A stretch of 64,000 nucleotides of DNA from Escherichia coli (lineage in GTDB: Bacteria; Pseudomonadota; Gammaproteobacteria; Enterobacterales; Enterobacteriaceae), in assembly GCF_044324875.1 (NCBI RefSeq), contig NZ_CP172185.1; one strand, 5' to 3'. Numbering within the stretch: the first letter of the stretch is position 1; each line of letters begins with the position of its first letter. The notes below the pieces were generated by a model. It had not been told where the DNA came from and searched no databases. It worked only from the letters and a program-made list of their open reading frames with translations. Position numbers and translations under genes: made by a program. Below, piece by piece: positions 17,300 to 21,596 of this stretch.

Positions 17300-18880
17300 G
17301 GATATTCTAGAACTATTCACAAAACTATTCCAGACATATCAAGAACTATTTCTTGACCTATTCATAATAAAATAAAACATGCTATCAACTACGGCTCATA
17401 TTCTCCTTGGGGGTGTCGTTGTACTGTTCGACTGTTCTTGTGGTCAGATTAACAATCTGAAGAGTAAAAGCGACAGTAATCTGTCTGTTATAGTGGCGAT
17501 AAAAACACTGAATGCGCATCCTGTATGTGAAATCCTGTCATGTAGAGCAGTAAGCAATGACAGACATGCATGTTATATGTGAAGGGGGCCGGGAGACGAC
17601 ATAATCAGTATGGCTGTCATTCTGGTTGTAAAACGCGATCACTTTCCGGGGGTAAAAGATGATATGGAGGTTGACAAACGGTTTGCTTCGGATTGTCTTT
17701 TCTGGGGCCTGAAATACGAGGGCAGAAAAATAATTCCAGAGTAAATCTGCTCTGTTTTTAGGACAGAAAACTCCATGCTGGCTGTAAAAGTGAAAAATTA
17801 ACACCCAGTATGTATGGAAGTCTGAAGATGTTGAGAATGTCGGTATGATACTATATACACATATTTTACTAAGTATTTTTACTAAGCATTTCAGTAAGTG
17901 TTATACACGTATTTTCTACTAAGTGTTTTACCAGACATACACGTGTTTTCATAAACAGCCCTATAAGTGTTTTCATTAAGCATTGCTGTACACATTGCTT
18001 TGTCTGAAACACATCCAGTTTAGTAAATCTTTACGTTAGCTAAAATCAGTTTAAAGCTGCTGTAAAACCTTTCTGTTTAAGCAATCAATCTGCTATTCGA
18101 TTTTACTGATGTTGCGTTTAACCTTTTCTGAGATTTCGAGTTTCGACGTTAGCATGAGAAAAGTATCTTTACGCTAAATCAACCCGAACTTTCCTGAAGT
18201 AATCTGACGTTTTTTTCGATGTGCTTACGACGATTCTGTTAAACGACTTTCTGGATGTTTTGATAACAATCAGATTGAGGCATTAACGATTCCTGACGTT
18301 TTCTTTTCCGTGTAAGGTCATTCTTTTTGTCATGAGGTTTCTTCTTGCATTGCGAAAGTGTGATGAACGGTTTTGGTGTTTTTGATTCAGATAAGGTTTA
18401 CGTTATCGATGGTTAATCGTTTTTATGGTGCGTAGTGAAACGTAACTTTTTCAGGATGAGAAAATCGATTCTGATGTTGGTGATTTTTGTTCTTGTGGCG
18501 GGGTTTATCTGTAAACAGGTTTTAAACGTGTCATTCACATCCGTGATTGAGTTGTGTGATTAAGCTGTAGGTTTTGGGGTTGTTGTTGATTTGCATTACC
18601 AGGAAGCGTTCTGGTTGCGTTTCTGGTGTTTTGTTCGAATGTTCTGTGGATCCTTTTCCCTTCTGACTTTTCTCGTTGTCCATGTCGTTTTTAAATCCAT
18701 TCGCTGTTCTTGAGTGTTTTTACCCTGCGTGTAGAATTATCTTTTCGTTCCGGGATGGTTTGTTCCGTTTCAATCACTCTTAATCAGAGAGTTGTAGCAT
18801 TGCTCAATGCCGGATGCCGTAAAGTTTTACCGCGGTGATTAATGATGTGAAGTCAATCCAAATCAACGGAGATCTCTCAT
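17300..18880. other. 1.6-kb AT-rich, ORF-poor region with short direct repeats upstream of the Gp2-family genes
   Basis: Repeated motifs tactaagt(a/g)tttt and acacgt(g/a)ttttc around 17870-17950; only short ORFs; strongly T-skewed plus strand. Confidence 0.5.
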
Positions 18881-18881
18881 C

Positions 18882-19613
18882 ATGAATCAACCAATACATA
18901 ATGCTTACTGGTTATCCCGTTTTGACAGCCTTCTCGACAGTGCCCTGGCGCAGCACCGTGCCGTCTCGTTAATCCGGGTGGATTTACGTTTCCCTGAGTA
19001 TATGCCTGTCACCATCATGGATCCCGATCCGGATTCAGCGGTGATTTCTCGTTTTTTTGCATCCCTGAAAGCCAAAATTCAGGCTTACCAGCGGAAAAAA
19101 AGATGTGCCAATCAGCGTGTGCATGCAACCAGCCTGCGTTATTTCTGGTGCCGGGAGTTCGGCAAGGAAAAAGGCAGGAAACATTATCACGTGATATTAC
19201 TGCTCAACAAAGATACCTGGTGCTCGCCAGGGGATTTCACCGTTCCTTCTTCGCTGGCGACACTGATCAAGCTGGCATGGTGTAGCGCTCTGCATCTTGA
19301 GCCCTGGCAGGGTAATGGACTGGTTCATTTTTCCAGGCGGACGCCTTTCCGTAAACCGGCATCATCTGATGCTCGCCCTTCTTCCGATGATACGCCTTTG
19401 TCGGGTGGATGTTCTGATACCAGGAAGGCTTCAGAAAAAAAGCCGGGTGAAGCCGCTGTTCTCTGGATCAAGCGTGGTGATGTGGAAGCGCTGCAGAAAG
19501 CCCGGAACAGAGCCAGTTATCTCGTGAAATATGAGACGAAGCAGCATGACGGTTCCGGGCAACGTAATTATGGTTGCAGTCGTGGGCCGGGGCGTCTGCT
19601 GGATGGCAGGTGA
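18882..19613 (+). CDS. Inovirus Gp2-family protein (YfjJ/YagK-like)
   Basis: 243 aa, contains RVDLRFPEYMP and HYHVILLLN motifs typical of the YagK/YfjJ family. Confidence 0.75.
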   Translation: MNQPIHNAYWLSRFDSLLDSALAQHRAVSLIRVDLRFPEYMPVTIMDPDPDSAVISRFFASLKAKIQAYQRKKRCANQRVHATSLRYFWCREFGKEKGRKHYHVILLLNKDTWCSPGDFTVPSSLATLIKLAWCSALHLEPWQGNGLVHFSRRTPFRKPASSDARPSSDDTPLSGGCSDTRKASEKKPGEAAVLWIKRGDVEALQKARNRASYLVKYETKQHDGSGQRNYGCSRGPGRLLDGR

Positions 19614-19969
19614 GCCCTGTAAAACGACATCCGGTGCCTGAGCTTATGCTACAGGACGTTGGCTGACGCCCTTAGCTCGTTTTCTGAAAAAGTCGTCCTG
19701 AAGTCATGCAACGGTATTTTTCTCTGCTTTCGCTCCTGGAAACACTCCGTCGGTAAAACCTTACTGTCCTGCTTAATGATGTGAACCGAAGTCAACGGAG
19801 ATCATTCATTCTGAACCTGCATCCGGTGTTCTGTCCCTTGTCGGTTACCTGATCTTCCCGTTCTGCCGCGGTTTTTCACTTATTCCATCAACCCCATACG
19901 CAAGCCATAACACGTCAGCGCATCCACGGGCAGGACGCGTTGTGGGCTGCGTATAACGGAACATATCTT

Positions 19970-20542
19970 ATGAATGCTATCCCTTATTTCGACTATAGCA
20001 TGGCGCCCTTCTGGCCATCTTATCAGAACAAAATCATCGGCGTTCTCAACCGTGTGTTGCGCGAGCAGTCCTGCTCCCGAATACGGCGGATCCTGCTTCG
20101 TCTGCCGGGGGAACATGGCAACATCTTCAGCGACAGAAAAACCTGGTTCGGTATGGCCTTTATCGAAACCGTCAGTGCGCTGATGAATGCAACCCCCGGA
20201 CGCGACCTCTGCTGGCTCCTGACCCGTCATCCTGAAAAACCGGAATACCACGTGGTGCTGTGCGTCAGACAGGAATATTTCGACGGCCCTGAGCTGGACC
20301 GGTTGATTCTGGATGCCTGGAGCAACGTACTGGGCTTCGCGTCACCGGGTGAAGCAGCACCGTACCAGAAACAGATAACCCGGGATGTGGTGCTGGACAG
20401 TTGTTCACCGGACTGCGAAGAGAGACTCAAAGAGCTGATATGGGCGTTCAGTGATTTCGCCCGCGATCGTCGTGGTGTGCGCGATCCGGAAGCCCGTTAC
20501 CTCGCCGGTAATCCCTGGTATCCCGTAGCAGGCCAGCTCTGA
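19970..20542 (+). CDS. Inovirus Gp2-family paralogue
   Basis: Same layout as previous gene (RILLRLPGEHGN ... EYHVVLCVRQ); start taken at MNAIPYF. Confidence 0.65.
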   Translation: MNAIPYFDYSMAPFWPSYQNKIIGVLNRVLREQSCSRIRRILLRLPGEHGNIFSDRKTWFGMAFIETVSALMNATPGRDLCWLLTRHPEKPEYHVVLCVRQEYFDGPELDRLILDAWSNVLGFASPGEAAPYQKQITRDVVLDSCSPDCEERLKELIWAFSDFARDRRGVRDPEARYLAGNPWYPVAGQL

Positions 20543-20610
20543 AAGCTCAGCTCAGCAGATTCACCCGCATTTGCCCAACATTCATAAATCTCACAGAGGA
20601 CATTCTGACC

Positions 20611-20847
20611 ATGTTGACCTCAATGACAGGTCACGACAGCGTATTGCTGCGTGCCGACGATCCCCTGATCGACATGAACTACATCACCAGCTTCACTGGT
20701 ATGACCGACAAATGGTTTTACAAGCTGATCAGTGAAGGCCATTTCCCTAAACCCATCAAACTGGGGCGCAGCAGCCGCTGGTACAAAAGTGAAGTGGAGC
20801 AGTGGATGCAGCAACGAATCGAGGCATCACGAGGGGCAGCAGCATGA
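20611..20847 (+). CDS. alpA: AlpA-family phage/island transcriptional regulator
   Basis: 78 aa; MTDKWFYKLISEGHFPKPIKLGRSSRWYKSEVEQW matches AlpA wHTH consensus. Confidence 0.8.
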   Translation: MLTSMTGHDSVLLRADDPLIDMNYITSFTGMTDKWFYKLISEGHFPKPIKLGRSSRWYKSEVEQWMQQRIEASRGAAA

Positions 20848-21047
20848 AACGTGTTGTAATGCCGGTACGCTGGCAATGTGCAAAATACCAGCGTTGGTAT
20901 TGTGGAAATCAGCCCTGTCCCTGGTGCTGGCGACCTGCTGCCCCCGTCTGTCATTCCTCGTTCTTCGCTGTAACAGGCATCGTACCGGTCTCGGCGTGCT
21001 TTCCTGCGTACCGACACCGGTTCAGCAACATTCAAGGGGATCAAATC

Positions 21048-21596
21048 GTGCAAATAACCGAAACCGTACTTTCAGAGCCGGTGGAAATCCGGCGTTTTAT
21101 TCAGCAGGCGGTGGATCACTGGCCGCGTCTGCTGGCCGTCCACTTCACACTCCATTCGGCAGAAGGAAACATCAACGGACAACAGATTCATGCATTCTGT
21201 ACTTCCTTTTACCGACAGGTGCACGAGCGTATTACTGAACGTAATCACACGGCCAGTCCAGCACCACCGGTGGTATTACGCTGGTTGCGGGAACAACATG
21301 GAGGAGCAACAATGCGATGCCTGTTGCTGCTCAGCCAGACGAGCATTTGCCATCCACGGGTCAGTGCCACGGTTGATGAAGAATGTTCGCAACGGGTGGA
21401 TTTATTGCAACAGACATGGCGGGTGATAAGTGCTGACGGACAATGCCGGGTGGAAAGGTGTTTTCAGGCTGCCCGGGGTGATACATCCGGCCAGTATATT
21501 GCGTTAAAAACAGTTGCATTGTCTCTGGGGTTACCGGTTGTGACCGGTATTACCCATCGCCCGGTACAGCGCTGTACATTGATTACAGCTCAGTGA
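21048..21596 (+). CDS. Inovirus Gp2-family-like protein (third paralogue, 182 aa from GTG)
   Basis: RLLAVHFTLHSAEGN segment parallels the RVDLRFP...HYHV layout; GTG 21048 with RBS aagggga preferred over the long ORF-track start overlapping alpA. Confidence 0.5.
   Translation: MQITETVLSEPVEIRRFIQQAVDHWPRLLAVHFTLHSAEGNINGQQIHAFCTSFYRQVHERITERNHTASPAPPVVLRWLREQHGGATMRCLLLLSQTSICHPRVSATVDEECSQRVDLLQQTWRVISADGQCRVERCFQAARGDTSGQYIALKTVALSLGLPVVTGITHRPVQRCTLITAQ

Follow-up and report, generated by a model that had tools for sequence, protein, structure and literature searches.

A CP4-57-type island module of Escherichia coli with a predicted HUH-family gene, two remote paralogues and a duplicated leader element

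Genes and leader elements at the locus

We analyzed a stretch of Escherichia coli DNA (64,000 nucleotides of contig NZ_CP172185.1, hereafter the window), in which an earlier note had pointed to three tandem Gp2-family genes behind an AT-rich repeat region and a duplicated leader motif. The locus holds three same-strand open reading frames (ORFs; 18882-19613, 19940/19970-20542 and 20802/21048-21596), an alpA-family gene and two copies of a leader element. On balance, it probably belongs to the conserved backbone of a CP4-57/pathogenicity-island-type element, preserved here in a remnant that is riddled with insertion sequences (ISs) and lacks an integrase, with two predicted transcription units sharing a cis element. 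The features of the locus are listed below.

17185-17721: first part of the spacer, common only to islands with the 262-aa gene (about 50-60% column identity)
17722-18801, + strand: spacer core, AT-rich, T-skewed and noncoding, always upstream of the 243-aa Gp2 gene
17737-17754: terminator-like hairpin that can be read from either strand, where the conserved core begins (local folding z -2 to -2.9)
17864-17929, + strand: degenerate tandem array of the 13-nt unit TTTTACTAAGTAT (Tandem Repeats Finder: 5.2 copies, 66% matches)
18802-18881, + strand: leader 1, heading ORF1, 97-100% identical across islands
18817-18832: 16-bp palindrome of leader 1, CCGTAAAGTTTTACCG
18839-18851: 13-mer of leader 1, TTAATGATGTGAA
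18863-18874: block of leader 1, TCAACGGAGATC, which supplies the Shine-Dalgarno sequence
18882-19613, + strand: ORF1, 243 aa, YagK/YfjJ ('inovirus Gp2') family, predicted HUH-type Rep-like nuclease
19614-19738, + strand: conserved tail at the 3' end of the ORF1 module, with CGCTCCTG as its constant end boundary
19731-19815, + strand: leader 2, 5' end of the ORF2-alpA-ORF3 module
19751-19766: palindrome of leader 2, CGGTAAAACCTTACTG
19773-19785: 13-mer of leader 2, TTAATGATGTGAA
19792-19803: block of leader 2, TCAACGGAGATC
19970-20542, + strand: ORF2, 190 aa, remote Gp2-family paralogue by hhalign, with EYH in place of HUH and without the tyrosine motif
20611-20847, + strand: alpA-family helix-turn-helix gene of the excision regulator or recombination directionality factor type (PF05930)
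20844-21047, + strand: Cys-rich stretch (...WQCAKYQRWYCGNQPCPWCW...), whose opening ATG overlaps the stop codon of alpA (ATGA) and which continues in frame into ORF3
21048-21596, + strand: ORF3, 182 aa, distant relative of the Gp2 family without the HUH motif, assigned to PF27752 (also 'UCP030791')

The protein encoded by ORF1 matched the Pfam family PF11726 YagK_YfjJ_C over profile positions 2-170 of 170 (121.3 bits against a gathering score of 25.8 bits, E 5.2e-35) and also PF23343 REP_ORF2-G2P (39.1 bits, cut-off 27.8, E 9e-10), and it resembled PHROG 'replication initiation protein' families (E 6e-6 to 5e-4). Relatives were found in 587 cluster representatives by a whole-library HMMER search. 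ORF1 has an HUH motif (H101-Y-H103) and a YxxK-type tyrosine motif (Y213-L-V-K216...K220), and in an alignment of 53 diverse family members H101, Y102, H103, Y213, K216 and K220 were each conserved at 90% or more. The AlphaFold model of ORF1 was confident (pLDDT 85, pTM 0.81), and the protein shows the characteristic fold of HUH endonucleases. ORF1 is a true YagK/YfjJ protein with a predicted HUH fold and intact HxH and tyrosine motifs. No similarity of ORF1 to relaxase families was detected in Pfam, a PDB sequence search with the family profile gave no match, and PADLOC assigned none of ORF1, ORF2 and ORF3 to a defence system. Residues 152-192 of ORF1 form a low-complexity, low-confidence disordered insert of about 40 aa (KPASSDARPSSDDTPLSGG...), which is missing from K-12 YagK and YfjJ. 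YagJ, which also has 243 aa, was considered as a relative and proved to be unrelated to ORF1. The gene sits in a chromosomal island and an inovirus context is absent; tblastn against 50,697 phage records returned a single unverified 4.5-kb contig. The 'phage' record OR844780 was rejected, being an unverified low-coverage contig.

ORF2 scored below the gathering score of PF11726 (11.7 bits, E 0.26) and ORF3 gave no match to it; neither protein obtained a Pfam or NCBIfam match in these searches, and some RefSeq records label ORF3 homologues 'YagK/YfjJ domain-containing' or 'inovirus Gp2 family'. Comparison by hhalign with the 53-member Gp2 alignment gave a probability of 95.9% for the ORF2 family (E 5e-9, 166 columns) and a weaker match for the ORF3 family (83.8%, E 8e-6, 109 columns). 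The kinship of ORF3 with Gp2 was backed by its model (pLDDT 68), in which helices and strands follow one another as they do in ORF1; this model matched a generic palm/RRM fold first and an HUH Rep second. A direct profile comparison of ORF2 with ORF3 gave no signal. At the HUH site ORF2 has E-Y-H, with no tyrosine at the position aligned with the tyrosine motif, and ORF3 has M-R-C. The detected ORF2 relatives, all at least 50% identical, were essentially all from E. coli, and the three Gp2-type proteins share at most about 20% identity.

The ratio of nonsynonymous to synonymous substitution rates (dN/dS) was 0.33 for ORF1, 0.20 for ORF2 and 0.31 for ORF3, and was 0.09 for alpA and 0.15 for the nearby GTPase gene. 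Because dN/dS is 0.20-0.33 in the three ORFs, all of them are real genes under purifying selection. Among the three Gp2-type proteins ORF1 alone looks catalytic, and the profiles identify ORF2 and ORF3 as predicted ancient paralogues of the Gp2 family without catalytic motifs and with no sign of recent amplification. The profile-level kinship of ORF2 with Gp2 and its loss of the catalytic motif seem undescribed in the searched literature. The description of three tandem Gp2-family genes thus holds in so far as three same-strand ORFs are present and the first encodes a Gp2 protein, but ORF2 and ORF3 belong to the family at profile level only and alpA intervenes between them. The further claim that the initiator genes were amplified proved wrong, because the identity is at most about 20% and two of the proteins lack the catalytic motifs.

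AlpA matched PF05930 (40.8 bits, cut-off 21, E 2e-10) and PHROG excisionase families. The gene separates ORF2 from ORF3, which thus flank it. The Cys-rich stretch after alpA is a separate small ORF in some islands, including an 80-aa ORF in the circular record CP057032.1, and had no Pfam match.

The duplicated leader and the AT-rich spacer

The two leaders are built alike, with a 16-bp palindrome (CGGTAA-N4-TTACCG type) followed by TTAATGATGTGAA and then by TCAACGGAGATC. The duplication proposed in the earlier note is real: positions 18819-18886 and 19753-19815 were about 77% identical with a 5-nt indel, and the exact 13-mer occurred at two sites only in the 64 kb, 18839 and 19773. With up to two mismatches allowed, 8 matches to the 13-mer were found against 1.9 expected, a number that 0 of 100 shuffles reached. 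The leaders are in direct orientation, 934 nt apart. The statement that a leader stands before each of the first two genes applies to ORF1, which it directly precedes, but a gap of 165 nt separates leader 2 from ORF2 downstream of it. Leader 2 has no consistent ORF start, and the frames between it and ORF2 are not conserved.

A further 151 leader copies from metagenomes and genomes, chosen by exact match to the blocks, showed a block spacing of either 11 nt or 6 nt and no other. The 11-nt spacing was found before ORF1-type genes and the 6-nt spacing about 165 nt before ORF2-type genes. In 11 islands found by BLAST, a sample unbiased for the blocks, leader divergence was 0.03, compared with 0.08 (0.079) at four-fold sites of ORF1 and 0.19 (0.185) in the spacer. 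As RNA, leader 1 could fold such that the 13-mer pairs with the start-codon region, which would hide the AUG (folding z -2.4). Apparent covariation in a small inverted repeat just upstream of leader 1 was discarded, as its variants were inconsistent. Over 100,044 species genomes the leader pattern was matched in one Enterobacteriaceae metagenome-assembled genome only. We read the leader as a probable protein-binding control site common to two units; alternatively, it could be where the HUH protein acts. The conserved two-copy element seems to be undescribed in the searched literature.

The stretch upstream of ORF1 (17185/17272-18881) is ORF-poor, AT-rich and T-skewed, as the earlier note had described it. 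Its GC content is 0.33-0.40, compared with 0.50-0.57 in the genes, and within 18200-18800 the AT skew falls to -0.41 and the GC skew rises to +0.3. The synteny of the spacer core extends to more than 1800 E. coli genomes, and the core aligns across islands from position 17722 on. To call it a repeat region was an overstatement: there is one degenerate 13-nt array, with related copies reaching about 17990 and a copy number that varies among islands, but other k-mers were barely above shuffles. Enrichment of ACG-type motifs was marginal. In 17922-18520 the A/T tracts show a weak periodicity of about 8.25 nt, which 2 of 200 dinucleotide shuffles also reached; phasing of A/T tracts at the 10.5-nt helical repeat, as a sign of intrinsic curvature, was not significant.

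Among 58 distinct sequences, column variability was 0.216 in the spacer, 0.069 at third codon positions of ORF1 and 0.026 in the leader. The rate at which the spacer drifts thus equals or exceeds the synonymous rate and is about three times that of the third codon positions. Typical variants nevertheless have a similar length (1008-1150 nt) and remain T-rich (about 38% T). No hidden gene was apparent in the spacer, as substitutions lacked a 3-nt periodicity and stop-free stretches in typical variants did not exceed 95 aa; small minus-strand ORFs annotated in some records (18531-18683 here) were rejected because their starts are inconsistent. An Rfam scan of 15000-24000 gave no match (the single hit, inside ORF1, had 24 bits against a gathering score of 45), and folding z across 18050-18750 stayed within about ±1.9, mostly ±1, on both strands, with no structured RNA. 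DnaA boxes, an IHF site and a GATC cluster were all absent from 17185-18881, and a scan of the spacer for H-NS motifs was negative. The spacer is best described as an ordinary fast-evolving intergenic or promoter region. Since it keeps its length and base composition and not its sequence, it is probably not a sequence-specific origin and not a structured RNA either, the two roles that had been suggested for it. The earlier interpretation is thus partly supported, with the locus being a module and not an amplified replication origin.

Modules, cargo and island context

Comparison with other islands showed that two modules meet at about 19731-19738. The ORF1 module consists of the spacer, leader 1, ORF1 and the 125-nt tail, and was present in more than 1800 genomes, where its parts always keep their order behind the GTPase gene and a hypothetical gene; the full layout of GTPase gene, hypothetical gene, spacer, 243-aa Gp2 gene and variable cargo was seen in many genomes. 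At least five alternative cargoes follow the boundary CGCTCCTG (a restriction endonuclease, a TIR protein, an acyltransferase, ireA, and an IS110 remnant with YfjI), and in this window the place is taken by the second module, with leader 2, ORF2, alpA and ORF3. In other islands the ORF2 module is usually preceded by another Gp2 protein, of 189 aa, in which the motif reads H-A-H. The constant 3' boundary of the ORF1 module (about 19731-19738) is a hotspot for cargo and defence genes, and it too seems undescribed in the searched literature. Part of the 4.3-kb module was matched in 2,861 of 5,426 complete E. coli genomes and most of it in 247. The module adjoins virulence and defence cargo, represented here by aerobactin, Sit and a YadA-like adhesin.

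The DNA of the locus was 99.9% identical to that of E. coli strain SCU-115, and the window is E. coli chromosome. The locus lies inside a large IS-riddled island adjoining ynjB, with a backbone of the CP4-57 or pathogenicity type according to the matching SCU-115 annotation. The backbone genes comprise a CbtA/YeeU toxin-antitoxin pair, an antirestriction gene, DUF932, RadC/JAB, DUF905, DUF987 and DUF4942, and past the locus there are IS1, a YadA-like adhesin, the aerobactin genes iuc/iut and the sit genes. Three further genes lie close to the locus.

14459-15343: YfjP/YeeP-like GTPase gene
16396-17184, - strand: hypothetical 262-aa gene, divergent from ORF1 across the spacer, in a subset of islands only
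21614 to about 22120 (end approximate), - strand: ProQ/FinO-domain gene directly after ORF3, frameshifted in this strain

The C-terminus of the 262-aa protein was weakly ribbon-helix-helix-like, below threshold (Pfam RHH_1 E 0.085, RepB-RCR_reg E 0.099; range about 0.03-0.1); the stretch recalls the CopG-type repressors of rolling-circle plasmids through these below-threshold matches. ProQ/FinO-type proteins are chaperones of antisense-RNA control in plasmids, and it is possible that intact islands have a layer of RNA-level control through this gene. The island copy is strongly decayed, with frameshifts in DUF4942, ProQ/FinO and iucD and numerous IS fragments, and it retains aerobactin, Sit, SodC and the YadA-like adhesin (24596-26197).

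No tRNA was found in the 64-kb window, and no tyrosine recombinase or integrase was annotated over the matching SCU-115 region, so that this island copy is probably immobile. The tyrosine integrase and the tRNA or att site that mark the mobile form of a CP4-57-type island are thus missing from this copy, and its relatives carry an integrase adjoining tRNA-Phe.

One lead to a mobile form was the circular 'plasmid' record CP057032.1 of E. coli RHB40-C01 (62,375 bp), for which no replicon type and, by MOB typing, no relaxase type was assigned. It is built wholly of this island type and carries ORF1 (94% identical) together with its spacer. The record also has three Gp2-family genes and K88-like fimbriae. 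Its junction between DUF4942 and the integrase was contiguous in only 3 of 5426 genomes, and the integrase side normally abuts tRNA-Phe. The topology of the record, as judged from this junction, is that of an excised circle.

Candidate functions and comparison with known systems

In the preferred reading, unit 1 would be ORF1, encoding an intact HUH-superfamily Rep-like nuclease of the YagK/YfjJ family, and unit 2 would be ORF2-alpA-(Cys-rich stretch)-ORF3, in which ORF2 and ORF3 appear to be non-catalytic paralogues still under selection. Each unit would open with the same cis element of about 65-85 nt (the 16-bp palindrome and two invariant blocks), and the simplest reading is that one factor may switch both units together. 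AlpA would drive excision, as has been shown for its homologues. Replication or transfer by the HUH protein is possible, and we tentatively suggest that this protein might nick the DNA of the island and thereby initiate replication or transfer once the circle has been excised. Leads in this direction are the circular record, the increase in copy number reported for an integrase and a Gp2 gene in E. coli Nissle (preprint 10.1101/364505) and the intY/alpA islands that have Gp2-like core proteins (PMC12595487). It is unlikely that the leaders themselves are the cis sites nicked by ORF1, perhaps aided by ORF2 and ORF3, with rolling-circle replication or single-strand transfer as the outcome; if it were true, the very common pathogenicity and defence islands of E. 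coli would pass through a concealed phase in which they resemble plasmids or can be mobilised, and this would account for the 62-kb circular record that has no replicon. An active HUH nuclease acting at the leader would also add a post-excision replication or transfer step to 'cryptic prophage' islands, and island spread and copy number would be understood differently. If ORF1 is not an active nuclease, the leader would still be a compact control element linking a Rep-like gene to the alpA excision switch.

Several observations weigh against the preferred reading. Leader 2 had no stable RNA fold (z +0.8) and lacked the hairpin found at the ORF1 start; because leader 2 is without this fold, a common RNA structure fails to explain the shared blocks. 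As the blocks show no variation at all, covariation gives no clue as to whether they form a DNA operator or an RNA element. No convincing or conserved sigma-70 promoter was detected in or near the leaders, and a sigma-70 consensus match at 18710-18737 was rejected as not conserved. In PLSDB no Gp2 homologue was the sole Rep of a small plasmid; plasmid homologues were located in large plasmids with their own replicons or in IS-captured fragments, and homologues were nearly absent from phage records. Finally, the circular record could be an assembly product of tandem islands, because three genomes hold the same junction in the chromosome. IncK2/Z plasmids with 91% Gp2 matches were also inspected and were set aside, the matches being truncated fragments captured by ISs and not replication genes.

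A different proposal is that the spacer or its 13-nt array is an origin, that the Gp2 proteins are its initiators and that the excised island replicates like a plasmid. The Rep fold and motifs of ORF1, the iteron-like array of variable copy number in an AT-rich spacer and the circular record with its three Gp2 genes are in its favour, as is a preprint in which an integrase gene and a Gp2-family gene are reported to have gained copies in E. coli Nissle isolates from the gut (10.1101/364505). It is made improbable by the drift of the spacer, about three times that of third codon positions, by the lack of DnaA boxes, IHF sites and GATC clusters, and by two of the three 'initiators' having no catalytic residues. 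No small plasmid in PLSDB has a Gp2 protein as Rep, and this copy is without an integrase. HUH initiators act at a defined nick site that usually lies at a hairpin, and the leader, not the spacer, is the sole invariant candidate for such a site.

The Gp2 proteins might instead be domesticated DNA-binding regulators, or accessories of excision or silencing, without a nuclease role, with the leader as their operator or that of AlpA. This would agree with ORF2 and ORF3, which have lost the catalytic motifs and are still under purifying selection in one unit with alpA, joined by the ATGA overlap, and with a palindromic 16-bp site at the head of both units. We judge it unlikely, however, as ORF1 retains every catalytic residue at more than 90% conservation in a multi-genus family, which is hard to explain without enzymatic activity.

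It is less probable still that ORF1 is a relaxase-like nickase and the leader an oriT-like site, serving single-stranded mobilisation by a helper conjugative plasmid or packaging by a helper phage. The HUH fold is common to relaxases and rolling-circle transposases, the backbone genes are typical of plasmid leading regions (antirestriction, DUF932, RadC/JAB, a toxin-antitoxin pair), and a palindrome beside an invariant sequence is the usual layout of a nic site. In addition, Pseudomonas intY/alpA islands, in which Gp2-like proteins are core genes, are moved by transduction with a jumbo phage (PMC12595487). However, ORF1 had no relaxase similarity in Pfam and MOB typing of the circular record was negative, a coupling protein and transfer genes are not present, and two direct leaders only 934 nt apart are unlike the layout of an oriT.

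That the leader duplication is a functionless relic of an old duplication or gene conversion, and the spacer decaying junk, is very improbable, since the downstream proteins are at most about 20% identical whereas blocks of 12-13 nt are preserved exactly across about 150 leader copies, leader divergence is below that of four-fold sites and the spacer has kept its length (1008-1150 nt) and T-richness despite bacterial deletion bias, although no ORF starts after leader 2 and the spacer evolves at an approximately neutral rate.

Returning to the preferred reading of a two-unit island module, its parts can be compared with several known systems. The filamentous-phage gpII and microvirus-type initiators (PF23343) have an HUH fold, HxH and a YxxK-type tyrosine motif as in ORF1, and the fold and motifs are also common to HUH Reps such as parvovirus NS1/AAV Rep, RepB of pMV158, SIRV1 ORF119 and Helitron. 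In the CopG-RepB module of pMV158 an HUH gene lies across from a divergent gene with a possible ribbon-helix-helix C-terminus, as here; this is a resemblance only, as neither the RHH nor the RepB-RCR_reg match comes near its threshold (E about 0.1) and the 262-aa gene is missing in many islands. An AlpA-family helix-turn-helix gene occurs in the same backbone in CP4-57 (AlpA/IntA) and in the Shigella SRL island (Rox, of the AlpA/Vis type), where Gp2-family ORFs are listed beside the Vis/AlpA gene (PMC6980539). In contrast to both, alpA is enclosed here by a pair of degenerate Gp2 paralogues, and the integrase is missing. The Pseudomonas intY/alpA islands likewise have RadC and inovirus Gp2-like proteins as recurrent core genes, together with defence cargo (PMC12595487), but they belong to another genus, carry a different integrase and have no reported leader element; the likeness noted here is one of gene content.

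A further comparison is with K-12 YfjJ (CP4-57) and YagK (CP4-6). ORF1 is 29-31% identical to these proteins and differs from them by the extra 40-aa disordered insert. The comparison with the yfjJ and yagK upstream regions that the earlier note had proposed was run, and the leader was not shared; both K-12 genes are without a leader and without a long spacer, and in CP4-57 yfjJ follows yfjI (DUF3987) with no spacer before the gene. They share with ORF1 the PF11726 family (E 5e-35) and a setting in cryptic islands of the P4-integrase type, where alpA, DUF932, a YfjP-like GTPase and a toxin-antitoxin pair of the CbtA/YeeU type are also found.

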